A stretch of 64,000 bases of DNA from Biomphalaria pfeifferi (taxonomy: Eukaryota): assembly GCA_030265305.1 (NCBI GenBank), contig JASAOG010000079.1, positions 365,331 to 429,330 on the forward strand. The letters are read 5' to 3'. The notes under the pieces are model-generated. The model ran no database searches. It was not told the origin of the DNA and worked only from the letters and a program-made list of their open reading frames with translations. Below are positions 5,398 through 63,250 of this stretch, piece after piece (positions within the stretch are counted from its first letter, which is position 1; each line of letters starts with the position of its first letter). The position numbers and the translations under genes were made by a program.

Positions 5398-5509
5398 TGG
5401 CAGGTTTTTGAATCAAAGTATGTGGCATTATTGGGTCTGTGTTGTCCTGTTTCGTTCACACATTTACAGGCGTCCCCCTGAACACACTGACCTTGATGAC
5501 AAAGACATG
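5398..5509 (-). CDS. mucin/VWF-like gene exon (Cys-rich module after the repeat domain)
   Basis: Strong acceptor ttttatttttacag and donor gtaagt, in phase with the PTS exon. Encodes (A)CLCHQGQCVQGDACKCVNETGQHRPNNATYFDSKTCQI. Confidence 0.65.
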
Positions 5510-5618
5510 CTGTAAAAATAAAACAATTGAACAAAGGTGGACAATTGAGCAAAGGTGGACAAGTGAATAAATGCAATTAGGGCATAACTGACTTTAAAGT
5601 AAAGATAAAAACACTGAC

Positions 5619-8270: not shown

Positions 8271-9087
8271 CTGCAGTTGATAAAATAATTTTGGACAAGC
8301 TTATGATGTGTTATTATTGCTTACCATCATGATAGTCATAGAAATACTAGGCCACATGTTGTGAATCATCCCAGTTTGTTTCCAAACGTTTTGATCACAT
8401 TGTATTCAACTAAGAAATTAACTTGGGGAATATATAAAATGGTTTCTATTTTTTAAACTGTGTTTCAAGTGTTCATTTAAATGACAGCAAATTTTTTTTG
8501 GTTAAATAATTCCTCTTATTAGCTGGCAAACTCTTCATGGGTGGGCGGACACGACTCTAACGATTTTCCCAGAAGTTTGACAGTTTATCTATATCTTAAA
8601 GGAAAAAAAAGAGGGTGGGGAATAGTTATTACAAGCAAACTAACCATTCTTACAAAAAGTCTTTAGCTTTATAAAAGGAGTAATAGCCTTTTTAAAGAAA
8701 TAATTTGTGACAAATTTTACTTGTTTTTATAGCACAACCACAATGAATCTGAATAGAAGAAATGTATTTAAAACTAAAGTGTTTTCTGAGTTAATTTTAC
8801 AATTCCTTTTATTTACATTACACAATTTTTTACTGTTTTCACCCGAGTCTTTCAAAAAAGAGACATGCTTTTTGTTCACAATCGGTCACATAAAATCTCA
8901 GTTGTTAATAAAATAGTCAGGTAAATTAATTATTTAATTATGATCATTAAAATTTATATGTCATAAATGAAAGTGTACATACTATATTTTGAGTATAAAA
9001 GGAATACTTTAATGTAACGTTCATGTAGTTGTGTAGGTGGGTCTCTGTATGCATATATACTTAATTCCTAAATATTTCTATAATTAC

Positions 9088-9954: not shown

Positions 9955-10140
9955 TTCGGGATGTTTGGGTGCCTCTGAGTTCACCCAGCTTTAATGGGTA
10001 CCTGACACTAGCTGGGGAAAAGTAAAGGCCATTGGTCGTTGTGCTGATCTCATGATACCCTCGTTAAATGTGGGACATAGGAACAGATGACCTTTACAAT
10101 ATCTGCCCTATAGATCGCAAGGTCTGAAAAGGGAACTATA
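9955..10140 (+). mobile_element. SINE family A, 5'-truncated copy
   Basis: Body motifs gggtacctgacactagctgggg..ggtcgttgtgctgatctcatgataccctcgttaa..atctgccctatagatcgcaaggtctgaaaag. Confidence 0.7.
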
Positions 10141-10273
10141 CTTTTTAAACTGTTTAGACATAAGTGCTTTGTTTACTGTACATGAAATAATTGTTACACT
10201 AGTGATTATGCATAAAACTGTATCAGAGTGATACAATGTGATATAGAATATAGATGTAGTAGATTGTATTTAC

Positions 10274-12496: not shown

Positions 12497-13189
12497 CTGG
12501 TAAAAAGAGGTTTTACCAAACCAAAAAGTATCAGCCAAGAAAGCAAGAAGAAACAAATATTTTAGGAACAGAACATTTATTTAATTATTTGTATCATTTA
12601 ATTCTGTATTGTGTATTAAAAAGAATTGTGATAATTTATTACATATTAAGTATTTGTTTATCTCTGGTTTACTGACTTGCTTTTGCAATCACTAGTTTAA
12701 AACTGCCTCGCTGAAACTCAAAATCTACGAGTTTTCGTTGTTTTTCCTTATACATCCTTCTTACAAAAACAATGTAAAAGAGGCAACTCAGCAACGAATG
12801 ATGGAAGAGGCTTCAGACATTGCCAGTTATGGAGACAACTTGCCGCCCAATGTACCGAACAGCGCGGGAAAATCTAAGTCTAAATGGGATGAATATTACT
12901 TGTGATAGAGGATGAGACGCTTACAATAAATAAGTCCGTGTTGCTTCTCAAGTCTTGTAGCTCTGGCGGCATTCTGGCCTAAAGGATTCAATCGTGCCAT
13001 CTCCTGTCTTTACTTCCTACAGGCTTCCCTATATGGACACTAACGCGTGTTGTCTTAAGGACGTTGGTCTAAAAAAACAAACAGGAATGTCTTCCACTTC
13101 CAGGAAATACTCTTCCACAATTGCAAAGACAATTTCTTGACCAGACAACCCACACCGTTGCAGTACTATAGAATCTTCTTCTTATCTTC

Positions 13190-13990
13190 TTATATAATAC
13201 AGATGTTACTTCAAAAAAGAAGATGCTTACGTCCTACGCATCATGCATTTAGTCATGCATATTAACCAATGACTTAAATTCTGCCAAGTCACTGGTTTTC
13301 CTGGCTAGCTCAGGCAACCCATACCATGCTCTAATAGCACTAGGGAAGAAGGAGTATTTGTACAAATTGTCCTAGCATATGGGACGAGGAATATGCCTTT
13401 ATTTTTGTGTCTTTCTGAGTATTTGATTAAATTTTGTTTTTGTATTTGAAGTTATGGTTCAGTGTTTTATGTATAATTGCTACTTTACTTTTGAGTCTTC
13501 TGCCCTGAAGGCTTTCTAAAATTTAGTGATTTTACTAAGGGTGTTACTCTAGTCAAATGTGAATATTCATTTGTTATGAATCTCACTGCTCTATTTTGTG
13601 TATTTTCCAGTTTCTTAATGTTTTCTTGAGTTGAGGGGTCCCAAACGGAGGATGCATATTCTATTATTGGCCTAACCAAGGTTAAATGACATTGTAGTTT
13701 TATGTTCTTATTTGATTTATAGAAATTTCTTTTAATAAATCCTAATGCTTTGTTTCATTTTTTTTTTATAGTTTCATCAATATGTGGATTCCATGACAGT
13801 TTTTCATTTATTATAACACCTGGGTATTGTGCGTTTTATAGTCTGTGTTACTGGTTTGCCATGGATAAGATAAGTGGAATTAATTTGTTTTGAATGTAAT
13901 TACCCGCTAGAAAACGATTTATTTGTAGAACAAGTGGTTGTGTGTTTTAAAAAAATGATCGGACAAAACTGTAGGCTTGTAATCCAATTG
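13190..13990 (-). mobile_element. LINE family Y 5'-truncated copy (minus)
   Basis: Reverse complement of the conserved 3' UTR at 13200-13265. Minus ORF 13485-13679 encodes MVRPIIEYASSVWDPSTQENIKKLENTQNRAVRFITNEYSHLTRVTP. Confidence 0.75.
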
Positions 13991-24574: not shown

Positions 24575-25752
24575 AAGTAAAGATAATAGTGAACAAATAG
24601 ATGCTATCTTACTAGATTTTTCTAAGGCTTTTGACAAAGTTCACCACCATAGTTGGCTTAAAAAATTAAAATATTTCGGCATTAATGGTCCACTGCATCA
24701 GTGGATTAAAGATTTTCTGATAGAGAGAGAACAAACTGTAATAATAAATGGCTCTAAATCAACACCAATAACAGTAAACTCAGGTGTACCTCAAGGAACA
24801 GTCTTGGGTCCACTACTATTTTTAATTTACATAAATGATTTACCAAATTGCATTAGTTCAGGAACAAAAGTCAGATTATTTGCAGACGATTGCATAATAT
24901 ATAGAACAATAAAAACAAAACAAGACACAGATACTTTACAAAGAGAATTAGATGAATTACAGAAATGGGAATCAAATTGGAGCATGTCTTTCCACCCAGA
25001 AAAATGTCAGTTGTTAAGAGTAACAAAAAAACTAAAACAAATTAATTCCACTTATCTTATTCATGGCAAACCAGTAACACAGACTAAAAACGCAAAATAC
25101 CTAGGTGTTATAATAAATGAAAAACTGTCATGGAATCCACATATTGATGAAACTATAAAAAAATCAAACAAAGCATTAGGATTTATTAAAAGAAATTTCT
25201 ATAAATCAAATAAGAACATAAAACTAAAATGTTATTTAACCTTGGCTAGGCCAATAATAGAATATGCATCCACCGTGTGGGACCCCTCAACTCAAGAAAA
25301 CATTAAGAAACTGGAACAAACACAAAATAGAGTAGTGAGATTCATAACAAACGAATATTCACATTTGACTAGGGTAACACCTATAGTAAAATCACTAAAT
25401 TTAGAAAGCCTTCAGGACAGAAGACTCAAAAGTAAAGTAGCAATTATACATAAAACACTGAACCATAATCTTCAAATACAAAAACAAAATTTAATAAAAT
25501 ACTCTGAAAGACACAAAAATAAAGGCACATTCCTCGTCCCATATGCTAGGACAAATTTGTACAAATACTCCTTCTTCCCTAGTGCTATTAGAGCATGGAA
25601 TGGGTTGCCTGAGCTAGCCAGAAAAACCAGTGACTTGGCAGAATTTAAGTCATTGGTTAATATGCATGACTAAATGCATGACGCGTAGGACGTAATCATC
25701 TTTTTCTTTTGAAGTAATGTCTGTATTATATAAGATAAGATAAGATAAATTG
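24575..25752 (+). mobile_element. LINE family Y, 5'-truncated copy with open RT C-terminal ORF
   Basis: ORF 24804-25673 (LDFSKAFDKV.., FADDCIIY, ..YSFFPSAIRAWNGLPE). Conserved 3' UTR and (TAAGA)n-like tail. Confidence 0.85.
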
Positions 25753-25844
25753 GCTTCAATTCCATTATTCACAAAGAAATTTTTAAGTCTCCACTTTGGA
25801 ATGCATTTCATTCTACCAAGAACCCAAAGTTATCAAAAACTTAC

Positions 25845-27639: not shown

Positions 27640-30316
27640 AGAACTTAGACTTAGAAATTTTATTAGAATGTGAGAAACCAGACATAATTGCAGGAAAAGA
27701 AACTTGGCTACATCCTGAAATTTATAATGCAGAAATTTTCAATAGTAATTATGAAATTTTTAGAAAAAATAGGGCTGATAATCATGGAGGAGTTCTTCTA
27801 GTAATAAAAAACACTCTTATAGCAGAAGAAATTACCTTACCTAACTCAAAAAATATAGAATCAACATTTTGTAAAATTAATACCACCTCAACATCCCTAA
27901 TAATAGGCAGCATTTACAGACCACCAAATTCTAGTTTAGAATATATGCAGGAACTATGTAATCAGATTACTACACTTAAAGAGACAAATACAAATGCAGT
28001 TTTTTGGATTATGGGTGATTTCAACCTACCTGATATAAATTGGAAAACACTAACCATAGATAAACACCAAAACCTTAAGGACATAAATGAACTTTTCATA
28101 GAAACTTAACACAACCTAAGTTTAGATCAAATCATTAAAAAGCCAACTAGATTAAACAACACATTAGATCTCTTCTTAACCAAAAGACCTGGATTAGTAG
28201 TTGATTATGATATTATCCCTGGTCTATCAGACCATGAGATCATAGAAATACACAGTCCCAATTCAAAACCCAAAAGAAAAATCTTACTCAGGAATAAATG
28301 TAACCTAACACAACTACACCAAGCTGCATTAAACTTTCAAGAAACATTCTTATTAGAAAAAGACATTAACCAACCAGTTGTTGACCTCTGGAATTTCATT
28401 AAAAACCATCTTAAAAGCATTATAGAAAATCATATACCAACTAAATACATATCAAACATAATAAATAAATGCTGGTTTAATAATAGACTAAAGAAGCTTT
28501 GTAAACAGAAGGAAAACCTATATAGAAAATTTAAAGAAACTAAGGCAGAAAGAGTTTACAAAAAGTATATAAAAATTAAACACTTAACCCAAAAAGTAAG
28601 CAGACAGCTGCAGAGTGAATACATAAACAATGTAATATCTAAAGATAACAACAAAAACCTATGGTCATACATTAAGTCTAAGAAAATGGAAACAACAGGC
28701 ATAGCGCCATTAAAAGATGAACATAACAGAGTACATAATGATAATGAAACTAAAGCAAACATTCTAAACAAATACTTTGCATCAGCATTCTCAGCCCCAG
28801 GAGACAAAGACATATTACTGAATTTGAACCAAGTAGACAACATGGAAGATATAGTAGTACAAGAAAATGGAATTCAAAAACTATTAGCCAACACCAAACC
28901 AAATAAAGCATCTGGACCTGATGGTATTCCAGCTAGATTACTCAAAGAACTAAGCAATGAGCTAGCGCCAGTGTTCAAAATACTCTTTCAGGCTTCACTT
29001 AACCAGGGCAGAGTACCAAAGGACTGGAAAGAAGCTAATGTCACATTTAAAAAAGGAGAAAGATCTGACCCAGGAAACTACAGACCAGTATCACTTACCA
29101 GCATCACATGTAAAATCCTAGAACACATAACATGTTGCAACATCATAAACCACTTAGACAAACAAAATGTCCTCACACCATACCAACATGGCTTTAGGAA
29201 ATATAGATCATGTGAAACACAACTAATAGGATTAATTGATGATTTTTCTAAAGGTTTTGATAATAGTGAACAAATAGATGCATCAGTGGATTAAAGATTT
29301 TCTGATAGGGAGAGAACAAACTGTAATAATAAATGGCTCTAAATCAACACCGATAACAGTAAACTCAGGTGTACCTAAAGGAACAGTCTTGGGTCCACTA
29401 CTATTTTTAATTTACATAAATGATTTACCAAATTGCATTAGTTCAGGAACAAAAGTCAGATTATTTGCAGACGATTGCATAATATATAGAACAATAAAAA
29501 CAAAACAAGACACAGATACTTTACAAAGAGAATTAGATGAATTACAGAAATGGGAATCTAATTGGAGCATGTCTTTCCACCCAGAAAAATGACAGTTGTT
29601 AAGAGTAACAAAAAAACTAAAACAAGTTAATTCCACTTAACTTATTCATGGCAAACCAGTAACACAGACTAAAAACGCAAAATACCTAGGTGTTATAATA
29701 AATGAAAAACTGTCATGGAATCCACATATTGATGAAACTATAAAAAAATCAAACAAAGTATTAGGTTTTATAAAAAGAAATTTCTATAAATCAAATATGA
29801 ACATAAAACTAAAATGTTATTTAACCATGGTTAGGCCAATAATAGAATATGCATCCACCGTGTGGGACCCCTCAACTCAAGAAAACATTAAGAAACTGGA
29901 ACAGACACAAAATAGAGCAGTGAGATTCATAACAAATGAATATTCACATTTGACTAGAGTAACACCTATAGTAAAATCACTAAATTTAGAAAGCCTTCAG
30001 GACAGAAGACTCAAAAGTAAAGTAGCAATTATACATAACACACTGAACCATAATCTTCAAATACAAAAACAAAATTTAATAAAATACTCTGAAAGACACA
30101 AAGATAAAGGCACATTCCTCGTCCCATGTGCTAGGACAAATTTGTAGAAATACTCCTTCTTCCCTAGTGCTATTAGAGCATTGAATGGGTTGCCTGAGCT
30201 AGCCAGGAAAACTAGTGACTTGGCAGAATTTAAGTCATTGGTTAATATGCATGACTAAATGCATGACGCTTAGGACGTAATCATCTTCTTTTTTGAAGTA
30301 ACGTCTTTATTATATA
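27640..30316 (+). mobile_element. APE-type non-LTR retrotransposon (LINE family Y), near full-length degenerate copy (EN + RT)
   Basis: EN motifs (GKETWL, NYEIFRKNR..GGVLLVIKN, IYRPPNS, GDFNLPDINW). RT motifs (DFSKGFD, FADD, VPKGTVLGPLLF). Stops and frameshifts present, plus a ~100-bp internal deletion near 29280 relative to the copy at 24575. 3' end conserved; tail ataagataagataag. Confidence 0.8.
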
Positions 30317-30434
30317 AGATAAGATAAGAACTGACGATACCAACGTTGATTCCACCAGAATGTGGTAAATAATTACGGAGAGAAAGAGCTAAACGACGAT
30401 GTAATCTTTAGTGTCTTTGAGACTTTATGCCTAC

Positions 30435-39327: not shown

Positions 39328-42300
39328 TTACAATCTAGATAAGGCATCGGCGATAACATTTTCGCTGCCTTTTATGTGTTTAAGATCTAGGTTGTACTCT
39401 TGTAAAAATAAACTCCACCTGAGAAGTCGTTGATTCTTGCCAGACATTTTGTGGATAAATGTAAGGGGATTGTGGTCAGTAAATACAACCAGTGGCCATC
39501 TGGACCCACTGATATAAAGATCAAAGTGTTGTATAGAAAGAATCAACCCAAGACATTCTTTTTCCACAGTAGAATAATTTCTTTGATGTCTATTAAATTT
39601 CTTGGAAAAGAAACAAATAGGATGCTCTACTTGGAAATTATCTTCTTGGTAAAGGACTGACCCAACACCTGTGTCACTGGCGTCAATAGCTAACCTAAAA
39701 GGTTTTCCGAAATCAGGAGCCATCAAAATGGGGGAGCTAGATAATATCTGCTTAATTTGGTTAAAGGCTTTCTGACATTCATCCGTCCAAGTAAATCGGA
39801 CGTTCTTTCTCAGGAGGTTTGTTAAAGGACTGGCAATGACAGAAAAATTTTCGCAAAATTTTCTATAATATCCAGACATTCCCAAAAATCTTCGGAGTTG
39901 TTTCCGATCAGCAGGAATAGGGAAAGCTTGGATAGCTTCTACTTTGGCCATTACAGGTTTCACCTGGCCTTGTCCTACAATATGGCCTAAGTATTGGATG
40001 GAAGCCTGGCAAAAATCACTCTTACTCAGGTTTACAGTAATTTTTGCATGTAAAAGTTTAGTAAAAAGACAATGCAGTTGTTTACAATGGCTAGAAAAAT
40101 CTTGGCTAAAAATTACTACATCGTCTATGTATGCGTGGCAATTCTCCATGTCAGCAAGCAGGGCATTTATCATTCTCTGGAAAGTGGCAGGAGCATTCTT
40201 CATGCCAAATGGCATCACTTTGTATTGGTACAGACCATCAGGGGTGACAAAGGCGGAGATTTCCTTTGCCCTATCAGTCAGGGGAACCTGCCAATAACCT
40301 GAAAGTAGGTCTATTTTGGTGAAGTACTTAGCTTCACCAATACGATCTATGAGATCGTCTATCCTAGGGATAGGAAACGAATCGGTCTTTGTTACAGCAT
40401 TTACCTTACGGTAGTCTGTACAAAAACGATAAGTCTTGTCCTGTTTAGGTATCAAGACACATGGGGAGCTCCAGCTACTGGAACTTGGTTCAATGAGGTC
40501 ATTTTCAAGCATATACTTGATTTCTGACCTAAGTATGGCAAGTTTTTCAGGGTTGACCCTGTAAGGATGCTGCTTGACTGGAGTAGCCTCGCCAACATCT
40601 ACATCATGCATTATAACATTAGTCTGTTTTGGTACATCAGAAAAAATGTCATTAAATTCATTAATGAGTTTCATGATAACTGGCCTTTCTGTCGAAGACA
40701 GATGAGACAGTTTTACATCCAAATTCTGTAATACAAAAGAATTAGGTATTTTGTATTGTCCAAATTTCTCCTTTACAATATCATCATCAATAGGAGAAAC
40801 ATGGCTATTTGAACAACTTTTGACTGTATTTAAAACACAATTACTCTTCTCTGAGTGATCTGGCCGAGATACATAAGGCTTCAGCATGTTTATGTGACAT
40901 AGCTGAGTCTTTTTCCTACGGTCAGGAGTTTTGATTGTGTAATTGAGGTCACTAATTTTGGTCTCAATTTCATAGGGACCAAAATATCTGGCTTGCAAGG
41001 GTTGACCTGGTATGGGCAAAAATACAAGCACCTGATCCCCGGGAGAAAATTCTCTAACACGGGCCTTTCTATCATACCAGCGTTTCATGCTGGATTGGGT
41101 GTTTTGTAAGTTATTTTTGGCCAGAACACAAGCATCATAAAGTCTAGTTTTAAACTTACTTACATAGTCTAAAAGTCCTTCAGTGGCTGTTGGTGACAAC
41201 AAAGTCTCTTTTATACATTTCAAGGGACCGCGCACCGAATGGCCAAAGACTAAGTCAAAAGGGCTGAATCCCAACGATTCCTGGACGGATTCACGGGTTG
41301 CAAACAGCAGCATGTGGATTCCTTCGTCCCAGTCTTTTTCGTGCTCAAAGCAATAGGTTCGGATCATGTTCTTGAGAGTCTGATGGAATCGCTCAAGAGC
41401 GCCTTGCGACTCGGCATGATACGCACTCGACATGCAGTGTTTGATGCCCAACTGAGTCATGATTTGCTTGAAAAGATTGGCCGTGAAATTCGTTCCTTGG
41501 TCCGATTGGATGGACTTTGGTAGACCAAATAGAGTAAAGAACTTGATTAAGGCCTTTACAATGTTCGATGCTTTTATGTTCCTTAGAGGAATAGCCTCAG
41601 GAAAACGAGTTGAAGCACACATAATGGTCAACAGGTATTGGTTGCCAGCTTTTGTCCTTGGGAGAGGACCAACACAGTCAATAAGTACTCTGCTGAAAGG
41701 TTCTTCAAAGGCTGGAATCGGCTTCAGAGGAGCAACAGGGATCTTTTGATTTGGCTTGCCAACCATCTGACAGGCATGACAGGATCGGCAGTACTGGATG
41801 ACATCTTTCTTCAAACGTGGCCAGAAGAAGTGTGACATAATCTTGTGATATGTCTTGTGGATGCCGAGATGACCTGACATTGGTGTGTCATGAGCCAGAT
41901 TCATGATGTACGCTCGGTATCTTTCTGGTAACACGATTTGATGGCATATTCTCCATTCTTCTTCGTTGGATGCGTCTGGAGGTTTCCATTTCCTGAAGAG
42001 CATATCATCTTGGATGTAGTAGCACGTTGATGCTAGCTCTGCCTCTTGTGATGTCATTGCGGTTTCTCGGAGTTTGGCGAGCTCTGGATCCTTCTTTTGG
42101 TCCTCAATCAACTGTTTTCGAGTTGATGCCGGCTTTTCAGAATTTGGCGTTGGTTCTTCTTCAAGAGAAGCAAAGAATGTGGTGCTCAAGTCCACATCAT
42201 CGTGGTTACTGTTGGCCTTGATGACGTTCTCTTCTTGAGATGCTTTCAACCTCATTGCCCTTGTTACTGCACACGCTGGATATAACTCTAGGTCTTCCTC

Positions 42301-44406
42301 GGGTGTGGCAGATAAGTCGGGTTTTTGAGTGACGATGGGTTCGGCTATCACCTTTCCACCTGCTAAGTCATTGCCTAACAGCAACGAGATGCCTTCCAAT
42401 GGTAATGTTGGTCGGACACCTACAACAACCGGTCCAGTAATGAGATTTGACTTTATGTCGATTAGATGTAGAGGCACATCTATACATCCAAGCTCTACGC
42501 CTCGTAACAGGATGCTCTTCCCAGTCGATGATGATTTTGACAAGGGCAAGATACCCTCTAAAAGTAGCGATTGTGAGGCACCTGTGTCTCTCAAAATGGT
42601 GATAGGTCGTAGACTTGTAGAATCACCGGGTAGTGATACGAATCCTTCCGAAATGAAAGGCTTAAAATCCTCTAATAAAACATCAATTTTGGTTGATGCA
42701 GACTGGACTTGGGTCGAACTCTCGCTGGAGTCATTGACATCTCTAGGAGACGCAGTGGAGAAACTCTTTCTTGAGTCAGTAGAACATCTTTTGGATGTAT
42801 TTGGAGAACTCTTGATGGAGTCATTGGAACATCGGGGTGATGTTTTATGGGAACTCTTGATAGAGTCATGGGAACATCGGGGTGATGTATTATGGGAACT
42901 CTGGATAGAGTCATTGGAACATCGGGGTGATGTATTATGGGAACTCTGGATAGAGTCATTGGAACATCGGGGTGATGTATTATGGGAACTCTGGATAGAG
43001 TCATTGGAACATCGGCTTGATGTATTATGGGAACTCTGGATAGAGTCATTGGAACATCGCTGTGATGTACTAGGTAAACTCTTGTTTGAGTCATTGGAAC
43101 ATCGGCTTGATGTCTTTGAAAAACTCTTGATTGAGTCAATGGAACATCGTAAAGATGAATTTGAAAAACTCTTGTTTGAGTCATTGGAACATCGGCTTGA
43201 TGTATTTGAAAAACTCTTGTTTGAGTCATTGGAACATCGTGGAGACATTTTCGGAGAGTCTTGTACAGTCAATACATTTGAAACAGGTGGTGTCGAGGTA
43301 TTCTTGATATGACTTGATGATGAGGGAGTAAACCTCGCCGACCACTGTACTGTGCAAGCGCTGACTTTTGAAGGAGCTTTTTCGTTTCTCTTCCTCAATT
43401 TCCAGCAATCGTCAATTTTATGGCCTTCTCGTTTGCAGTAGGAACAAGTAGCTTTACTTGTAGTAGGTTTTCTGTCGTTTGTACTGCTGTTCTTGATGGA
43501 GTTGCTAGCAGTGGACTCAGGCTGTTTGACTTGTTTTGGCTTGACATCCGTCGTATACTTGGCAAATTGTTGTGATATTATATAATCGTCTGCCAACACT
43601 GCAGCCTTGTGCACATCTTCCTCGCCACGATCAGCTATATGCGTACGGACGTCCAGCCGCACACAACTCTTGAACTCTTCCATCAGCATTAGGTTCTTGA
43701 ATTTGGCAAAGTCGGTGCCGATTTCCTTGGAAGTGAGCCATTTTTCAAAGCGTCGCTCCTTTTCCCGCAGGAATTCTACATGGGTTTGGCCATCCGATTT
43801 GCGACAATCCCTGAACTGCTTTCGGTAAGCTTCCGGAACAAGTTCATATGCCTTAAGAATTAAGGCCTTAACAACATTATAATCTTTTTGTTGTTCAATG
43901 GTCAAAGAACAAAATACCTCTGCAGCTCTACCAGTCAAAACTGTTTGCAGCAAAGTGGGCCACAAAGTTTCAGGTACATTAAAATTTTTCACAGCAAGTT
44001 CAAATTGTGGAAAATAATTGTCAATTGTGGCTTCATTAAAGCGTGGAATTATTTTCAAAAATTTTGTTGCTTCAGCAGTATGACTGGCAGGGGAAGAATC
44101 TGGTCTTACATTAGCAGCTAACTCTAATTTTCTTAACTCTATTTGTAATTTCATTTCCTTCTCTTTTAAAGCTAACTGGGCTTCTATTTCCATTTGTTTT
44201 AATTTTATCTGAAGTTCTAAATCTGATTTACCCTCATCAGGTCTAAGGGTTTCTAAAAGGTCTTCAGAAAACACTTCCTCGTCTACATAATGGATTACAA
44301 TGTTATCTCTGATTTCTTGTTTAAGGGCATTTGATTTTATTTTTAACCCTAAATGTTTAGAAATAAGGACCAGTTCCTTCCTAGTACAAGCATCAAGCTC
44401 TTCCAC
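39328..44406 (-). CDS. gag-pol polyprotein of the LTR retrotransposon
   Basis: In order: gag CCHC knuckle CSYCKREGHKIDDC; Ser-rich repeats; protease LRDTGASQS; integrase HHCC (HLGIHKTYH...CRSCHACQ), DDE core (LIDCVGPLP, SDQGTNF) and GPY/F (ARYFGPYEI); RT (FGMKNAPATFQRMIN, YIDDVVIFS); RNase H (DASDTGVGSV, TDHNPL, ADALSRL). Integrase lies upstream of RT. Confidence 0.9.
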   Translation of the reverse strand: MEELDACTRKELVLISKHLGLKIKSNALKQEIRDNIVIHYVDEEVFSEDLLETLRPDEGKSDLELQIKLKQMEIEAQLALKEKEMKLQIELRKLELAANVRPDSSPASHTAEATKFLKIIPRFNEATIDNYFPQFELAVKNFNVPETLWPTLLQTVLTGRAAEVFCSLTIEQQKDYNVVKALILKAYELVPEAYRKQFRDCRKSDGQTHVEFLREKERRFEKWLTSKEIGTDFAKFKNLMLMEEFKSCVRLDVRTHIADRGEEDVHKAAVLADDYIISQQFAKYTTDVKPKQVKQPESTASNSIKNSSTNDRKPTTSKATCSYCKREGHKIDDCWKLRKRNEKAPSKVSACTVQWSARFTPSSSSHIKNTSTPPVSNVLTVQDSPKMSPRCSNDSNKSFSNTSSRCSNDSNKSFSNSSLRCSIDSIKSFSKTSSRCSNDSNKSLPSTSQRCSNDSIQSSHNTSSRCSNDSIQSSHNTSPRCSNDSIQSSHNTSPRCSNDSIQSSHNTSPRCSHDSIKSSHKTSPRCSNDSIKSSPNTSKRCSTDSRKSFSTASPRDVNDSSESSTQVQSASTKIDVLLEDFKPFISEGFVSLPGDSTSLRPITILRDTGASQSLLLEGILPLSKSSSTGKSILLRGVELGCIDVPLHLIDIKSNLITGPVVVGVRPTLPLEGISLLLGNDLAGGKVIAEPIVTQKPDLSATPEEDLELYPACAVTRAMRLKASQEENVIKANSNHDDVDLSTTFFASLEEEPTPNSEKPASTRKQLIEDQKKDPELAKLRETAMTSQEAELASTCYYIQDDMLFRKWKPPDASNEEEWRICHQIVLPERYRAYIMNLAHDTPMSGHLGIHKTYHKIMSHFFWPRLKKDVIQYCRSCHACQMVGKPNQKIPVAPLKPIPAFEEPFSRVLIDCVGPLPRTKAGNQYLLTIMCASTRFPEAIPLRNIKASNIVKALIKFFTLFGLPKSIQSDQGTNFTANLFKQIMTQLGIKHCMSSAYHAESQGALERFHQTLKNMIRTYCFEHEKDWDEGIHMLLFATRESVQESLGFSPFDLVFGHSVRGPLKCIKETLLSPTATEGLLDYVSKFKTRLYDACVLAKNNLQNTQSSMKRWYDRKARVREFSPGDQVLVFLPIPGQPLQARYFGPYEIETKISDLNYTIKTPDRRKKTQLCHINMLKPYVSRPDHSEKSNCVLNTVKSCSNSHVSPIDDDIVKEKFGQYKIPNSFVLQNLDVKLSHLSSTERPVIMKLINEFNDIFSDVPKQTNVIMHDVDVGEATPVKQHPYRVNPEKLAILRSEIKYMLENDLIEPSSSSWSSPCVLIPKQDKTYRFCTDYRKVNAVTKTDSFPIPRIDDLIDRIGEAKYFTKIDLLSGYWQVPLTDRAKEISAFVTPDGLYQYKVMPFGMKNAPATFQRMINALLADMENCHAYIDDVVIFSQDFSSHCKQLHCLFTKLLHAKITVNLSKSDFCQASIQYLGHIVGQGQVKPVMAKVEAIQAFPIPADRKQLRRFLGMSGYYRKFCENFSVIASPLTNLLRKNVRFTWTDECQKAFNQIKQILSSSPILMAPDFGKPFRLAIDASDTGVGSVLYQEDNFQVEHPICFFSKKFNRHQRNYSTVEKECLGLILSIQHFDLYISGSRWPLVVFTDHNPLTFIHKMSGKNQRLLRWSLFLQEYNLDLKHIKGSENVIADALSRL
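42780..43270 (-). repeat. 48-bp in-frame tandem repeats (~11 copies) inside the gag-pol ORF
   Basis: Encodes SSRCSNDSNKSFSNT-like 16-aa units between the NC zinc knuckle and protease. The plus-strand ORF 42329-43312 is its antisense shadow. Confidence 0.85.
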
Positions 44407-46504: not shown

Positions 46505-46795
46505 TAGAAGGCGCGGTGGCTTGTGGTAAAGCGCTTGGCTTCCGAAACGGGTGTTCCGGGATCGAATTCTTGTGTCTACTGGGATATTTACTTTCGGAAT
46601 CTGTAGGGCGCCTCTGAGTCCACCCTTCTCTAATGGGTACCTGACATTAGTTGGGGAATGGTAAAAGCGTTGGTCGTTGTGCTGACCACATGACACCCTC
46701 GTTAATCGTGGGTCACAGAGTCGGATGACCTTGACATCATCTGCTCCATAGATCACAAGATCTGAAAGAGGATTTATTTTTTTTTTACTTATTGA
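46505..46795 (+). mobile_element. tRNA-derived SINE family A, full-length copy
   Basis: tRNA-like head ggcgcggtggcttgtggtaaagcgcttggcttccgaaac..gggatcgaattc; body ..ctaatgggtacctgac..ggtcgttgtgctgaccacatgacaccctcgttaa..catctgctccatagatcacaagatctgaaag. Confidence 0.75.
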
Positions 46796-53587: not shown

Positions 53588-56500
53588 AATGGCTTCTTTG
53601 TATAGTCACTAATAGGCTTCTTTGTATAGTCACTATAATGGCTTCTTTGTATAGTCACTATAATGGCTTCTTTGTAAAGTCACTATAATGGCTTCTTTGT
53701 ATAGTCACTATAATGGCTTCTTTGTATAGTCACTATAATGGCTTCTTTGTATAGTCACTATAATGGCTTCTTTGTAAAGTCACTATAATGGCTTCTTTGT
53801 ATAGTCACTATAATGGCTTCTTTGTAAAGTCACTATAATGGCTTCTTTGTAAAGTCACTATAATGGCTTCTTTGTATAGTCACTATAATGGCTTCTTTGT
53901 AAAGTCACTATAATGGCTTCTTTGTAAAGTCACTATAATGGCTTCTTTGTATAGTCACTATAATGGCTTCTTTGTAAAGTCACTATAATGGCTTCTTTGT
54001 AAAGTCACTATAATGGCTTCTTTGTATAGTCACTATAATGGCTTCTTTGTATAGTCACTATAATGGCTTCTTTGTATAGTCACTATAATGGCTTCTTTGT
54101 AAAGTCACTATAATGGCTTCTTTGTAAAGTCACTATAATGGCTTCTTTGTATAGTCACTATAATGGCTTCTTTGTAAAGTCACTATAATGGCTTCTTTGT
54201 AAAGTCACTATAATGGCTTCTTTGTATAGTCACTATAATGGCTTCTTTGTAAAGTCACTATAATGGCTTCTTTGTATAGTCACTATAATGGCTTCTTTGT
54301 ATAGTCACTATAATGGCTTCTTTGTATAGTCACTATAATGGCTTCTTTGTAAAGTCACTATAATGGCTTCTTTGTATAGTCACTATAATGGCTTCTTTGT
54401 AAAGTCACTATAATGGCTTCTTTGTATAGTCACTATAATGGCTTCTTTGTATAGTCACTATAATGGCTTCTTTGTAAAGTCACTATAATGGCTTCTTTGT
54501 AAAGTCACTATAATGGCTTCTTTGTATAGTCACTATAATGGCTTCTTTGTAAAGTCACTATAGTGGCTTCTTTGTATAGTTACTATAATGGCTTCTTTGT
54601 AAAGTCATAATAATGGCTTCTTTGTAAAGTCACTATAATGGCTTCTTTGTATAGTCACTATAATGGCTTCTTTGTATAGTCACTATATATAGTCACTATA
54701 ATGGCTTCTTTGTATAGTCACTATAATGGCTTCTTTGTATAGTCACTATAATGGCTTCTTTGTATAGTCACTTTAATGGCTTCTTTGTATAGTCACTATA
54801 ATGGCTTCTTTGTATAGTCACTATAATGGCTTCTTTGTATAGTCACTATAATGGCTTCTTTGTATAGTCACTATTGTGGCTTCTTTGTATAGTCACTATA
54901 ATAGCTTCTTTTTGTAGTCACTATAATAGCTTGTATAGTCACTATAATGGCTTCTTTGTATAGTCACTATAATGGCTTCTTTGTAAAGTCACTATAATGG
55001 CTTCTTTGTATAGTCACTATAATGGCTTCTTTGTATAGTCACTATAATGGCTTCTTTGTATAGTCACTATAATGGCTTCTTTGTATAGTCACTATAATGG
55101 CTTCTTTGTATAGTCACTATAATGGCTTGTATAGTCACTATAATGGCTTCTTTGTATAGTCACTATTGTGGCTTCTTTGTAAAGTCACTAAATGGCTTCT
55201 TTGTATAGTCACTATAATGGCTTGTATAGTCACTATAATGGCTTCTTTGTATAGTCACTATAATAGCTTCTTTGTATAGTCACTATAATGGCTTGTATAG
55301 TCACTATAATGGCTTCTTTGTATAGTCACTATAATAGCTTCTTTGTATAGTCACTATAATGGCTTGTATAGTCACTATAATGGCTTCTTTGTATAGTCAC
55401 TATAATGGCTTCTTTGTATAGTCACTATAATGGCTTCTTTGTATAGTCACTATAATGGCTTCTTTGTATAGTCACTATAATGGCTTCTTTGTAAAGTCAC
55501 TATAATGGCTTCTTTGTAAAGTCACTATAATGGCTTCTTTGTATAGTCACTATAATGGCTTCTTTGTATAGTCACTATAATGGCTTCTTTGTATAGTCAC
55601 TAAATGGCTTCTTTGTATAGTCACTATAATGGCTTCTTTGTATAGTCACTATAATGGCTTCTTTGTAAAGTCACTATAATGGCTTCTTTGTAAAGTCACT
55701 ATAATGGCTTCTTTGTATAGTCACTTTAATGGCTTCTTTGTATAGTCACTATAATGGCTTCTTTGTATAGTCACTATAATGGCTTCTTTGTATAGTCACT
55801 ATAATGGCTTCTTTGTATAGTCACTATAATGGCTTCTTTGTATAGTCACTATAATGGCTTCTTTGTATAGTCACTATAATGGCTTCTTTGTATAGTCACT
55901 ATAATGGCTTCTTTGTATAGTCACTATAATGTCTTCTTTGTATAGTCACTATAATGGCTTCTTTGTATAGTCACTATAATGGCTTCTTTGTATAGTCACT
56001 ATAATGGCTTCTTTGTATAGTCACTATATATAGTCACTATAATGGCTTCTTTGTATAGTCACTATAATGGCTTCTTTGTATAGTCACTATAATGGCTTCT
56101 TTGTATAGTCACTATAATGGCTTCTTTGTATAGTCACTATAATGGCTTCTTTGTATAGTCACTATAATGGCTTCTTTGTATAGTCACTATAATGGCTTCT
56201 TTGTATAGTCACTATAATGGCTTCTTTGTATAGTCACTATAATGGCTTCTTTGTATAGTCACTATAATGGCTTCTTTGTATAGTCACTATATATAGTCAC
56301 TATAATGGCTTCTTTGTATAGTCACTATAATGGCTTCTTTGTATAGTCACTATAATGGCTTCTTTGTATAGTCACTATAATGGCTTCTTTGTATAGTCAC
56401 TATAATGGCTTCTTTGTATAGTCACTATAATGGCTTCTTTGTATAGTCACTTTAATGGCTTCTTTGTATAGTCACTATAATGGCTTCTTTGTATAGTCAC

Positions 56501-57662
56501 TATAATGGCTTCTTTGTATAGTCACTATAATGGCTTCTTTGTATAGTCACTATTGTGGCTTCTTTGTATAGTCACTATAATAGCTTCTTTTTGTAGTCAC
56601 TATAATAGCTTGTATAGTCACTATAATGGCTTCTTTGTATAGTCACTATAATGGCTTCTTTGTAAAGTCACTATAATGGCTTCTTTGTATAGTCACTATA
56701 ATGGCTTCTTTGTATAGTCACTATAATGGCTTCTTTGTATAGTCACTATAATGGCTTCTTTGTATAGTCACTATAATGGCTTCTTTGTATAGTCACTATA
56801 ATGGCTTGTATAGTCACTATAATGGCTTCTTTGTATAGTCACTATTGTGGCTTCTTTGTATAGTCACTAAATGGCTTCTTTGTATAGTCACTATAATGGC
56901 TTGTATAGTCACTATAATGGCTTCTTTGTATAGTCACTATAATAGCTTCTTTGTATAGTCACTATAATGGCTTGTATAGTCACTATAATGGCTTCTTTGT
57001 ATAGTCACTATAATAGCTTCTTTGTATAGTCACTATAATGGCTTGTATAGTCACTATAATGGCTTCTTTGTATAGTCACTATAAAGGCTTCTTTGTATAG
57101 TCACTATAATAGCTTCTTTTTATAGTCACTATAATTGCTTCTTTGTATAGTCACTATTGTGGCTTCTTTGTATAGTCACTATAATGGCTTGTATAGTCAC
57201 TATAATGGCTTCTTTGTATAGTCACTATAATAGCTTCTTTGTATAGTCACTATAATGGCTTGTATAGTCACTATAATGGCTTCTTTGTATAGTCACTATA
57301 ATAGCTTCTTTGTATAGTCACTATAATGGCTTGTATAGTCACTATAATGGCTTCTTTGTATAGTCACTATAAAGGCTTCTTTGTATAGTCACTATAATAG
57401 CTTCTTTTTATAGTCACTATAATTGCTTCTTTGTATAGTCACTATTGTGGCTTCTTTGTATAGTCACTTAATGGCTTGTATAGTCACTATAATGGCTTCT
57501 TTGTAAAGTCACTATAATGGCTTCTTTGTAAAGTCACTATAATGGCTTCTTTGTATAGTCACTATAATTGCTTCTTTGTATAGTCACTATTGTGGCTTCT
57601 TTGTATAGTCACTTAATGGCTTGTATAGTCACTATAATGGCTTCTTTGTATAGTCACTATAA
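53588..57662. repeat. 25-bp satellite (ggcttctttgtatagtcactataat)n, ~160 copies, with variant units and higher-order blocks
   Basis: Directly visible. Variants include gtaaagt vs gtatagt, 18-bp short units (ggcttgtatagtcac), and cactattgtgg / cactatatatag units that recur in the same order in two ~1-kb blocks. Confidence 0.95.
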
Positions 57663-57769
57663 TGGTATCGGCTTAGGAACAACTCATTGCGATTTTCTAT
57701 CGACTCTAAAGAGATGCAGGCTAGGTCGTAGCAATCTTTCAAATGAATGATTTATTTAGCGTCTCTTTT

Positions 57770-57935
57770 TGGTTCACCCACCTCTAATGGGTACCTGACT
57801 TTAGTTGGGGAAAGTAAAGGCGGTTGGTCGTTGTGCTGGCCACATAACACCCTGCTTGTTGACCGTTGGCTTAAGAAACAGATGACTTTAACATAATCTG
57901 CCCCATAGATCGCAAGGTCTGAAGGGGACACTTTA
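57770..57935 (+). mobile_element. SINE family A, 5'-truncated copy abutting the 25-bp satellite
   Basis: cacccacctctaatgggtacctgactttagttgggg..ggtcgttgtgctggccacataacaccctgcttgttg..atctgccccatagatcgcaaggtctgaagggg. Confidence 0.7.
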
Positions 57936-58698
57936 CTTTACTTTACTTTTGGTTTACAATACAGTAACTCTGCACGGTCTGAAAGCATCGTGTGTCGTGG
58001 CTTTTTGTTTAAATTCAATTTTTTCTAGTTAATAATAGTTTGACTTTCAAAGAATTCGCACTATAGAATCATAAGTTATTTCTGTATAAGATAATAACTG
58101 TGAAAACATGTAATTCTACTTAAAAGTATAATATTAGAGTTTATTTTTTTGTCAAATGTAATATATACGATAAGATAAGACGATAAGATAACACTAACAC
58201 CATCTATGCACACATTTGAGTGTATCTCTCATCTGACTAGAAACTTTAGTCTACACTGTAGTTGTAGAGTAATTTTTATGCTTTTCCTTCTGTCTTTTCT
58301 TCTGTTCCTGCCTGTAATGAAGTGATAACGACTAGACTACCAATACCATGGCTTTATTCGACAAAATCAGACTACAGTAAACAGTGAATGAAACCAGCAC
58401 GTCTCGCATAACACTGATGCAGTACTCTACACACACACACACACTGGACATGAAACAAACACTGGGCATGACCTTCTGACACGCTGGACGCAAGCAGAAA
58501 ATCAACTCAGTTACACTACAATGTATTTAGGGATAGGATACTTTCCTACATTCCAACATCACCTCTACCTCTGTAAAAGTATAGGCCCACCACAAGGATC
58601 AACCCCCTCGCCGTGCACATGCTGCATCGGTAAGCCATCTGTCCGATACCACATTCTCTGTTTCATCTGTGAAGATGAACTACCTGTTACTTCCCCCG

Positions 58699-60793
58699 AA
58701 TTTAGGAAATTTAGGCACCGGATATTTAGGCACCCGGAAATTTAGGCACCCGGATAATTAGGCACTTTTTGACAAGGCGGAAAATTAGGCACCGGAAAAT
58801 TAGGCACTCTTTAATAAGCGATCTTTATTTTGAAAATAATTTTAAAATGTTAACGTATATTTTATCCTTAGGCTATGGGCTATCGGAGACGTTATAATAA
58901 ATAGCAACTATAACGATTCTAGCTAAAGAAAAGCTGACAAAATGTGAAAAAATGACAATCATGAGAATGTGTGGAAAAAATGACTCATGAGTCATTATAT
59001 AATATAGACATCACAGCATTCAGGGAAGGGGAGGTAGAGATGATTCTCCGCTCATTGCTTCCCTCCATCACCAACCCCTACGGTTGACTGGTGAGTTTTT
59101 TCTAAAATTGATGATTATGCAATTTTTGTAAATATTTAGTTACTAATGTAAATACTTAGGATTAAAAAGTATTATAAAATATTTTTATTATGTCGGTGAG
59201 TGTTGGCGATAAATATAATCGCAATCGCCCTCTGCTTGTTTGAAAGGGTGGGTCGTACTTTTAAAATGGGTTGGGCGGGGGGGGGGGGGCGCCCACACTC
59301 ACTTAAATGAGAGGATTTCTCGCAGGTAGATGTAAACTTGGTCGTAAATGTTACGTAGTAACTCTGAAGGCTACACACTGGACTAAAGGGCATGGAAACA
59401 CAAAGGTGTTACAATGGAGGTCTGGGGATTCTATTTTAGAGGCCTTCCAAAACTTTGGTAGAACCATTTCTGTTAAAACCATCATAATATTAATAACAGT
59501 AATAAAAATAATAATATATATAAGGAAAATGAAGATAGTTGAATTTCATTGGGCAGTTTTGGAAGTTAAAGAAACGAGTGTTTTTGTTGTTTTTGTTTTT
59601 TAATCATATATATGTGTGTGTGCGTTTATTAATGTGTGTATGAAACCTTTTTTGTCGTTGTTTTTTTTTTCATTCTGAAGAAAAAAAATTGCATATGGTA
59701 CTGAACACAAAAGGAATGGGGGAATCATGCCTTCTCGAAAATTGAAGTAAATATATTTGGTTTATGATAGAGAAGGCGGGGTTATATTGGAACATCAACA
59801 ATCTTCTATAAGCAGAATAAGTATTAATAAGAGACCAATATTCCAAAAAAATGATATTAAAATTTTTAACTCATCTGTCTTTTCCATAAACTTTTTTTAA
59901 ATTTTCAAAACATATTTTATCGTAATTTCTAGCCGTTTTGCGATTTCTGTTGTAATTTATATAAATATTATATTACATAAATTTACATATATATTCAATA
60001 AAAGTTAATTACCACACTTGAAGGACGTAACACACCTATACACTCACACAATAGATCTTCCTAAAGTGGTTACCCATTAATAATATAAAGAAGGAGTGTT
60101 GATAATAGATATTAATGCTATTATAAAATATGAATAATACTTTAGTTTATCAACATATTTAATTCCTAAAAGTAACGCGCGCAAATCCCTCCTGCTCATT
60201 TCCATTCCCACTATAAGAAGACAATTTTCTCCAGACTTCCATTTTAGCAGTTACGTACAATGGTGTACCCTGCCCTGTACTCCAGTGTGTAGCTTTAAGA
60301 CTCATTACGTCATTTTCACGACCTAGTTCAACATCTACCCGCGATCCCCTCCTTTTAGTGGGAGTGCGTAGATGGGGAAGGGCTAAGGAGGGGAAGCAAT
60401 GAGAAGAGAATCAACTCTACCTCCCCTTCCCTGAATCCTGTGAGGTCTATATTTTATAATGACTATTTAGTCGGGGTCATTTTTTTCCACCCATCCTCAT
60501 GATTGTCATTTTAGCCATTTTGTCAGCTTTTCTTTAGCTAGAATCGTTATAGTTGCTATTTATTATAACGTCTCCGATAGCCCATAGCCTAAGGATGAAT
60601 TATACGTTAACATTTTAACATTATTTTCAAAATAAAGATCGCTTATTAAAGAGTGCCTAATTTTCCGGTGCCTAATTTTCCGCCTTGTCAAAAAGTGCCT
60701 AATTATCCGGGTGCCTAAATTTCCGGGTGCCTAAATATCCGGTGCCTAAATTTCCGGGTGCCTAAATATCCGGTGCCTAAATTTCCAGATACC
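58699..60793. mobile_element. Foldback-like non-autonomous element with ~430-bp inverted arms and subterminal tandem repeats
   Basis: Arms 58699-~59075 and ~60360-60793 are reverse complements (~90% identical). Both ends carry (aaatttaggcacccgg)n subterminal repeats. Flanked by identical 9-mer ACTTCCCCC at 58690-58698 and 60794-60802. Central ~1.28 kb has no convincing ORF. Confidence 0.6.
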
Positions 60794-60819
60794 ACTTCCC
60801 CCACGCCTTGTTATCATAC

Positions 60820-61170
60820 AATGGTGTCAGTGACATACAATGGTGTCAAGTGACATACAATGGTGTCAGCGACATACAATGGTGTCAGCGACATACAATG
60901 GTGTCAGTGACATACAATGGTGTCAGTGACATACAATGGTGTCAGTGACATACAATTGTGTCAGTGACATACAATGGTGTCAGTGACATACAATTGTGTC
61001 AGTGACATACAATGGTGTCAGTGACATACAATGGTACAATGGTGTCAGTGACATACAATGGTATCAGCGACATACATTGATGTCAACGACATGCATTGAT
61101 GTCAGTGACATACAATGATGTCAGTGACATACAATGATGTCAGCGATATACAATGGTGTCAGGAAACATT
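60820..61170. repeat. 21-bp tandem repeat (tgtcagtgacatacaatggtg)n, ~16 copies
   Basis: Directly visible, immediately right of the foldback-like element. Confidence 0.9.
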
Positions 61171-62584: not shown

Positions 62585-63250
62585 TAATATGTGAGTAAAG
62601 TAAAGTTCTATTTCAGACATTGCGACTTTTCTTAGCCAATTGTTTACGAAAAGGGAATCACGTGGCCAGCACGACAAGCTACCGCCTTTACTTTTCTCAA
62701 CAAAAGTCAGGTACCCGTTAGAGTTAGGTGGCTCAACCAATGAGCATCAGGAAACACAGGAAGCGCCATGTACAAAGAAATGACGAAGCCTAACAAACTG
62801 GACAGTATTAATTTCCTCTCCCGCAAAGAACAATCTACATTTTTCCAACTAAGAACAGGATACATACCACTATTATATTACCATCAGAACAAAATAAACT
62901 CCACACAACTCCCCCTTTACAGACACTGCGCCCACATCTTTAAAACCATTTACCATATCCTCTTTGAATGCCCCTCCCTAATCAACCTTAGGCAGACCCT
63001 ACTTCCACTACAGCCCAACATAACCAACGGCAGAGCTAAACAACTGAAGAAAACAGCACACTTTTTTCCCCCTTGGCACAGTCTGCAAAAGAGCGCACAG
63101 CTCAGCAGCAATAAAACTAGCTAGAAGAAGAAGAGTTAGGTGGACTCAGGGGAGCCCTAGAAATCCCGAAATTCAAAATCATCTTAACCGAGATTTGAAC
63201 ACAGAATCCAGATTTGGAAGCGCATAACCTCTCAGCCACCGCGCCCCCAT
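62585..63250 (-). mobile_element. SINE family A copy (minus) interrupted by the nested LINE fragment at 62736-63131
   Basis: Body (reverse complement of 62585-62735) and tRNA-like head (reverse complement of 63148-63245: ggggcgcggtggctgagaggttatgcgcttcc..gttcaaatctcgg) separated by the insert. TSD of the insert lies within SINE sequence. Confidence 0.65.
62736..63131 (+). mobile_element. 5'-truncated LINE 3' fragment (same family as 4020-4685) inserted in a SINE-A copy, with ~16-bp TSD
   Basis: ORF 62768-63124 encodes ..HIFKTIYHILFECPSLINLRQTLLP... Flanked by AGAGTTAGGTGG(C/A)CTC at 62720-62735 and 63132-63147. Confidence 0.65.

Follow-up and report, generated by a model that had tools for sequence, protein, structure and literature searches.

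What kind of event leaves two long inverted copies of one sequence facing each other across a non-coding middle, with the same nine nucleotides standing beyond either outer end? The question is raised by a 2,096-bp element, 58698-60793, inside the 64-kb window analysed here, that is, the whole 64,000-nt stretch of contig JASAOG010000079.1 of Biomphalaria pfeifferi (positions 365,331 to 429,330). The window is eukaryotic and repeat-rich, with 36% G+C and a CpG observed/expected ratio of 0.60. The anatomy of the element, its lack of coding capacity and the flanking 9-mer are matters of direct observation. It is very likely that 58698-60793 is a transposon insertion, because it combines (i) long inverted arms, (ii) oriented tandem arrays in their outer parts, (iii) a non-coding middle and (iv) an exact direct repeat at both flanks. 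The fuller reading favoured here, with moderate confidence, is one non-autonomous insertion of a foldback-type class II element, most likely from the Mutator superfamily and from its Phantom / 'MULE-NOF' side, to which Drosophila FB and nematode Tm1 are assigned; taken on its own, the attribution to the Mutator/Phantom type is an evenly poised call.

The long inverted arms announced in an earlier note on this DNA are real. The left arm measures 370 nt and the right arm 407 nt, with 93.5% identity over 370 columns, and blastn of the element against the window pairs 58705-59066 with 60387-60755/60786 (E = 8e-156). The outermost 247 nt of the arms (58705-58951 and 60509-60755) are 98% complementary. 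The left limit had been placed at ~59075, and strong pairing does reach 59066, but a weaker inverted repeat resumes once a 224-nt block peculiar to the left arm is skipped, and goes on to ~59428 and ~60225, bringing the arms to ~730 nt on the left and ~570 nt on the right of the 2,096 bp. The identity of the arms drops inwards, from 97.6% in the outer 247 nt to 92.0% in the next ~115 nt and 83.8% in the inner ~135 nt; the difference between the outer and middle parts has a Fisher p of 0.02. Such a fall is not expected from the uniform decay of a once-perfect duplication, and so argues against a one-off event of that kind. It fits an outer domain that is constrained or homogenised, or ends that grow inwards as proposed for foldback-like families (PMC3169594).

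Folded as a single strand, the element reaches -932 kcal/mol, compared with -475 +/- 8 kcal/mol for shuffled sequences, with 356 long-range pairs and a predicted stem of >350 bp. The CpG observed/expected ratio is 0.87 in the arms as against 0.60 for the whole window, and CCGG is present in every repeat unit, which is compatible with either a young insertion or a constraint on the units.

The repeat units occupy the outer 100-140 nt of each arm, about a third of its length, and the remainder is unique sequence. Counted by TTAGGCAC, there are six units in the left arm (4 + 2) and eight in the right (6 + 2). Units of 15 and 16 nt alternate and build a 31-nt dimer. The right array is longer than the left by 31 nt, that is, by one 15 + 16 dimer, so the single extra unit formerly ascribed to the right arm is actually two. 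The core TTAGGCACC is found ten times, every time in the arms, against 0.31 occurrences expected. Both arrays begin with GGA, adjoining the asymmetric 7-mers that terminate the element.

Beyond these 7-mers stands the 9-mer ACTTCCCCC, which has just two occurrences in the window, both strands having been checked. Its two copies sit at equal offsets, 7 nt each, from the inverted repeat. The exact repeat reported by the earlier note is confirmed, with the right copy where it had been placed and the left one at 58689-58697 instead of 58690-58698. The chance of finding such a 9-mer was estimated from random pairs of positions in the window: in 0.2-0.7% of pairs both boundaries have a direct repeat of 9 nt or more within 15 nt, and in 0.03-0.3% when equal offsets are required, the higher figures including matches due to the window's own repeats. 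If the element is a transposon insertion, the empty site would read ...CCTGTT-ACTTCCCCC-ACGCC... (GAACTACCTGTTACTTCCCCCACGCCTTGTTATC), with a single 9-mer.

Coding capacity is absent, which is usual for copies of the foldback and MITE-like (miniature inverted-repeat transposable element) kinds. The longest open reading frame (ORF) of the element has 98 aa, and its six frames give no Pfam match at E<=1, in agreement with the previous description of the centre as lacking a convincing coding sequence. The 98-aa ORF, which lies in the centre, has no real homologue among 1.84 billion representatives; its sole match, a bacterial repeat protein, was rejected because it is reached only by summing seven weak repeats. 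No Rfam family matches anywhere in the window, and the domains found in window ORFs of at least 120 aa are solely the reverse transcriptase and integrase of retrotransposons.

The features of the Foldback class are present: long inverted ends, modular repetitive ends with a varying number of units, and a duplication in the 8-10-bp range, seen in one instance. On the Mutator side stand a 9-bp duplication, which is not exclusive to that superfamily, and inverted arms of 360 nt or more that are preceded, at either end, by 7 nt without a match at the other. Foldback elements in general carry tandem repeats in their composite modular ends and duplicate 8-10 bp; most have been assigned to the Mutator superfamily (PMC4079207; PMC3169594). 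Mutator-like elements (MULEs) have unusually long inverted ends and duplicate 8-11 bp, most often 9 (PMC6446971). Non-matching terminal nucleotides outside long inverted arms have been described for Tm1, Phantom and Jittery (PMC3169594).

Among described systems the closest architecture, on the comparisons made here, is that of Tm1, a Mutator/Foldback element of Meloidogyne root-knot nematodes (Gross & Williamson 2011). Tm1 makes 9-bp duplications; inside the duplication and outside the inverted repeat it carries the asymmetric 7-bp motifs A1 (CGGTTAA) and A2 (CCTACCC), with GGA adjoining; and it has 1-9 tandem units of ~14 bp (13-15), their number differing between the ends of one element (PMC3169594). 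A GA-rich motif, GKGGAAAAGGGGA, lies near the inner end, and the mean end-to-end identity is 93.15% (PMC3169594). Most copies are non-coding and 0.2-2.6 kb long, while Tm1-A encodes a FLYWCH + MULE (Phantom-type) transposase (PMC3169594). The element studied here shares with Tm1 the 9-bp repeat, the 7-nt asymmetric ends, the GGA start, unequal numbers of ~15-nt units (6 versus 8), a GA-rich motif (GGGAAGGGGAGG) and, at 93.5%, a similar arm identity. GAATTTA and AGATACC hold the same position and have the same length as A1 and A2. The extreme 7 nt had been noted as imperfectly matched, and GAATTTA does differ from GGTATCT, the reverse complement of the right 7-mer; because Tm1 also has asymmetric 7-bp motifs there, however, the mismatch is probably part of the design, a feature of the family and not decay or a blemish.

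The differences are as clear. The unit sequences are unrelated (CGATTCAGTATCGC in Tm1, GGAAATTTAGGCACC here), and the 7-mers are alike in no more than three to four bases. About 215 nt of unique sequence separate the arrays from the GA-rich motif in the present arms, which are mostly non-repetitive, and a weak continuation takes the inverted repeat to 570-730 nt. The present host is another animal, with retrotransposons closest to bivalve, sponge and echinoderm ones, and an autonomous copy with FLYWCH + MULE domains is known for Tm1 but not for the element. Judged by its sequence, the element is not a member of Tm1 but only built like one.

Other foldback systems resemble the element less closely. 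In Drosophila FB the tandem units are of 10/20/31 bp. The Foldback-like label given by the earlier note suits the structure and the 9-bp duplication, but the arms here are not built of tandem repeats as they are in Drosophila FB. TU elements of the sea urchin Strongylocentrotus purpuratus, said to have been described by Liebermann and colleagues in 1983 and Hoffman-Liebermann and colleagues in 1985, are reportedly foldback transposons with an outer domain of ~15-bp tandem repeats, an inner unique domain and heterogeneous non-coding middles, and may serve as a lead. With Drosophila FB and Tetris the element shares long modular ends with an array of short tandem repeats in variable number and a non-coding middle (PMC4079207). 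These two make 8-10-bp duplications and belong, for most authors, to the Mutator superfamily (PMC4079207). In both, tandem repeats make up most of the arm, the Tetris units being ~220 bp long (PMC4079207), whereas here they form a short outer domain of 6-8 units.

From this anatomy we infer a mobile element that would depend on a DDE transposase supplied in trans by an autonomous relative elsewhere in the genome. The transposase would bind GGAWAWTTAGGCAC(C)(C), the 15/16-nt unit of which both outer domains hold a stack in inverted orientation, and the multiple sites may both confer specificity and bring the two ends together in synapsis. For excision, cuts would be made at the bases adjoining the asymmetric 7-mers. 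Joining into a target opened by a 9-nt staggered cut, followed by repair of the stagger, would then leave the two copies of ACTTCCCCC, and slippage or unequal exchange within the arrays could account for the unequal unit numbers. Experimental precedents exist for parts of this scheme. In Muta1, an animal MULE, subterminal repeats and a terminal motif affect transposition in vitro and in yeast, and cleavage by the transposase proceeds through hairpins formed on the flanking DNA (PMC5499845). The tandem repeats within Galileo's long ends are bound by its transposase's DNA-binding domain (PMC3688188).

Several observations weigh against this reading of the element as a Mutator-type foldback transposon. 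The first is that it is the single known copy in the window and the collections searched. With the element masked, no second copy was found in the 64-kb window by blastn (words 11 and 7) or nhmmer, using both arms and the middle as queries; the best hit, E = 0.002, consists of AT-rich stretches. Three contigs reached via retrotransposon protein matches contain no copy. In one of them (ERZ25072283 ctg155383), LINE (long interspersed nuclear element) copies are 96-98% identical to those of the window, a likeness that makes the same species, or a close relative of it, the probable source of the contig. A strict unit-dimer pattern has no match in metagenome contigs, and six-frame translations of the right arm have none among 5.8 billion proteins. 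No MULE, FLYWCH or other transposase is present among the window's reading frames of 120 aa or longer, the lower limit applied outside the element. The second concerns the superfamily, which is unproven and is argued from duplication length and architecture. The 9-bp duplication, which the earlier note had called typical of FB, Mutator and some other superfamilies, is within the Mutator range but does not discriminate, as some P-superfamily elements give 8-9 bp (PMC3698922). Foldback-like ends arose independently in several superfamilies, the P (Galileo) and Mutator lineages among them (PMC3688188, PMC3169594), the unit holds a THAP1-type core, TxxxGGCA, that would point to a P-type transposase, and there is no sequence likeness to Tm1 past short motifs. 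Lastly, the 224-nt block present in one arm, whether an insertion in the left or a deletion from the right, is unexplained.

That block (59068-59291) has no match elsewhere in the window and ends GGGCG13CG; its G13 tract (59277-59289) is what had been called a G19 tract. A nested insertion as its origin is unsupported, as the block has neither a duplication of its own nor inverted ends.

A looser pattern of three cores matches metagenome contigs and prokaryotic genome contigs >120 times each, and viral contigs 14 times. An expectation of ~0.06 chance matches was too low, tandem arrays not being random sequence. These loci were rejected as relatives of the element, since blastn shows no likeness beyond the motif, and are unrelated short tandem arrays; TTAGGCAC recurs in them at a 14-17-nt period, for example at 1955-2307 of an Ekhidna sp. 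metagenome-assembled genome.

The possibility that the element is instead a non-autonomous foldback-like transposon of the P superfamily, of the Galileo kind, whose units are binding sites for a THAP-domain transposase, is unlikely. Galileo, of the Drosophila buzzatii group, resembles the present element in its long, foldback-like ends with internal tandem repeats; these repeats contain multiple transposase binding sites, and many copies are non-autonomous (PMC3688188, PMC3573991). It is the THAP domain that binds the sites within them (PMC3688188). Galileo nevertheless duplicates 7 bp, compared with 9 bp here, its arms can reach 1.2 kb, and it codes for a THAP + P-type transposase. A closer duplication length is offered by the P element of the Drosophila repleta group and its MITE BuT5, which duplicate 8-9 bp (in most cases 9) and whose inverted ends are a minimal 3 bp, accompanied by sub-terminal inverted repeats, but the remaining P families duplicate 7 or 8 bp (PMC3698922), so that 9 bp stands at the edge of the P range. 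The units provide a further argument, as TTTAGGCA, a match to the core recognised by human THAP1 (PMC2879526), lies in those that carry AAATTTAGGCA or ATATTTAGGCA. TTTAGGCA is present in 8 of the 14 units (3/6 left, 5/8 right), a weak hint of a THAP-domain transposase that was noticed post hoc. Against it, THAP domains differ in the sequence they recognise (PMC2879526), the 5-base core has an estimated ~3% chance of occurring in any 15-nt unit, and about half of the units are without the T. No THAP or P-type transposase is encoded among window ORFs of at least 120 aa, and the combination of 7-nt asymmetric ends, 9 bp and ~15-nt units is the published pattern of Tm1, a Mutator/Phantom element.

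There is a similarly slim prospect that the element is the first member seen of a foldback lineage not yet described, in an aquatic invertebrate of a poorly sampled kind. The Tm1 layout would then reflect a requirement of Phantom-type transposases that is conserved across phyla, or a P-type convergence via the units with a THAP core.

Quite unlikely is an inverted duplication specific to this locus, produced by template switching or fold-back repair in a minisatellite-rich region and never transposed, with the 9-mer due to chance or microhomology. The single copy in the window and in all searches would suit such an origin, as would the packing of the window with tandem arrays, which suggests a region prone to replication slippage, and the 224-nt block and indels by which the arms differ. 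An inverted duplication, however, yields no direct repeats at both outer ends, and an exact 9-mer at equal offsets has the low chance given above (0.03-0.7%). Oriented arrays exactly at the outer ends and an inward fall in identity are typical of transposon ends, whereas a one-off copy should decay evenly. Furthermore, the whole layout repeats that of a described transposon family.

Very unlikely is a non-autonomous element of some other superfamily with 8-9-bp duplications. Merlin duplicates 8-9 bp and hAT 8 bp, so a hAT element would need one coincidental extra base; we know of no hAT or Merlin end feature in the termini of the element. The third candidate of this kind is Rehavkus, a Repbase group close to MULEs and grouped with them by some authors, which has 9-bp duplications like the one here, inverted ends of 26-400 bp, a PHD-finger transposase and a minisatellite inside the element, near its 3' end (PMC6446971). 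A 19-nt minisatellite does lie 13 nt from the right 9-mer, but it is outside that 9-mer and hence not part of the element as delimited, which also has no ORF of this sort.

Highly improbable, finally, is the reading of the inverted repeat as a hairpin-RNA locus giving small RNAs, which would be compatible with a transposon origin: a transcript would form a >350-bp stem, and endogenous small interfering RNAs of animals can originate from long inverted repeats and from foldback-type transposons, but there is no Rfam match and nothing in the sequence demands it.

For the genome concerned, a foldback transposon at this locus would add one non-autonomous family to the repeat library and has little import beyond annotation. 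Should many copies be confirmed, it would provide a second, phylogenetically distant case of the Tm1-type end architecture and help to define what Phantom/FB transposases recognise. Like other elements with long inverted repeats, the copies would further be candidates for hotspots of ectopic recombination, of inversions and of small RNAs derived from hairpins. The parts of the element are listed in Table 1.

Table 1. Parts of the foldback-type element and its flanks, in window coordinates (TRF, Tandem Repeats Finder).
Feature	Position	Strand	Remarks
Left 9-mer ACTTCCCCC, putative target-site duplication	58689-58697	.	exact match to 60794-60802
Left asymmetric terminal 7-mer GAATTTA	58698-58704	+	between 9-mer and inverted repeat; no pairing with right end
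Left outer tandem array, 4 units of 15/16 nt, GGAWAWTTAGGCAC(C)(C)	58705-58765	+	TRF period 16, 3.9 copies, 89% matches
Left spacer TTTTTGACAAGG, 12-13 nt			between outer array and inner unit pair
Left inner pair of 15-nt units, CGGAAAATTAGGCAC x2	58778-58807	+	TRF period 15, 2.0 copies, 100% matches
Left arm unique domain	58808-59067	+	pairs with 60387-60652; 97.6% in outer part, 92.0% in inner part
GA-rich motif GGGAAGGGGAGG	59023-59034	+	in left unique domain
Left-arm-only block, 224 nt, ending G13	59068-59291	+	right arm has 10 nt here (global alignment of halves)
Left inner weak continuation of inverted repeat	59292-59428	+	79-84% identity to 60225-60376
Central AT-rich non-coding segment, 796 nt, 27% G+C	59429-60224	.	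stops frequent in six frames
Right inner weak continuation of inverted repeat	60225-60376	-	counterpart of 59292-59428
Right arm unique domain	60387-60652	-	pairs with left unique domain
CCTCCCCTTCCC, reverse complement of GA-rich motif	60420-60431		in right unique domain
Right inner pair of 15-nt units	60653-60682	-	TRF period 15, 2.0 copies
Right outer tandem array, 6 units	60695-60786	-	TRF period 16, 5.9 copies; period 31, 2.9 copies, 96% matches
Right asymmetric terminal 7-mer AGATACC	60787-60793	+	reverse complement GGTATCT; unmatched with left end
Right 9-mer ACTTCCCCC	60794-60802	.	exact copy of left 9-mer

The surroundings of the element are rich in other repeats. The minisatellite to its right, previously described as a 21-bp repeat starting 25 bp away, has a 19-nt period (CATACAATGGTGTCAGTGA, ~18 copies) and covers 60815-61162, its first base being 13 nt beyond the right 9-mer. 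Eleven nucleotides of the unit, TACAATGGTGT, recur at 60256-60266 in the right inner arm, which may be chance (estimated at ~2%). On the left, a 25-nt minisatellite (AATGGCTTCTTTGTATAGTCACTAT, ~165 copies) extends over 4.1 kb, 53588-57665, and ends 1 kb from the element. Apart from this 25-nt array, the window has at least six minisatellite arrays with periods of 19-45 nt. A dispersed short repeat of ~80-85% identity, with copies at 57772-57939, 62662-62730, 9979-10144 and 46618-46766, stands on both sides of the element in opposite orientation and twice more elsewhere in the window, and is unrelated to the element.

Longer reading frames and retrotransposons lie further away. An intact 1,692-aa ORF at 39328-44406 (-) belongs to a Ty3/Gypsy-type retrotransposon with a Gmr1-like domain order: a SCAN-like gag domain is present, and the integrase (aa 827-1177) is located upstream of the reverse transcriptase/RNase H (aa 1319-1671). 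The ORF contains an in-frame 45-bp tandem array at 42794-43239. The ORF itself has no database record; its best relative, from a freshwater metagenome, has 67% identity, and the named matches (scallop, sponge, sea urchin, fishes) have at most 58%. A 944-aa ORF at 5464-8298 (-) consists of 45-nt (15-aa) Thr/Glu-rich repeats, TTEEELTTTAKTIET..., with the array at 5872-8265 and no Pfam match; it looks mucin-like but, with the opposite strand open over 803 aa, may be no more than a minisatellite free of stops. One LINE family is represented by copies at 709-1405, 13164-13891, 24581-25756 and 28479-30329 that are mutually 94-98% identical. The ENA metagenome contig with closely similar LINE copies, ERZ25072283 ctg155383, looks palindromic, possibly as a fold-back artefact of long-read sequencing.

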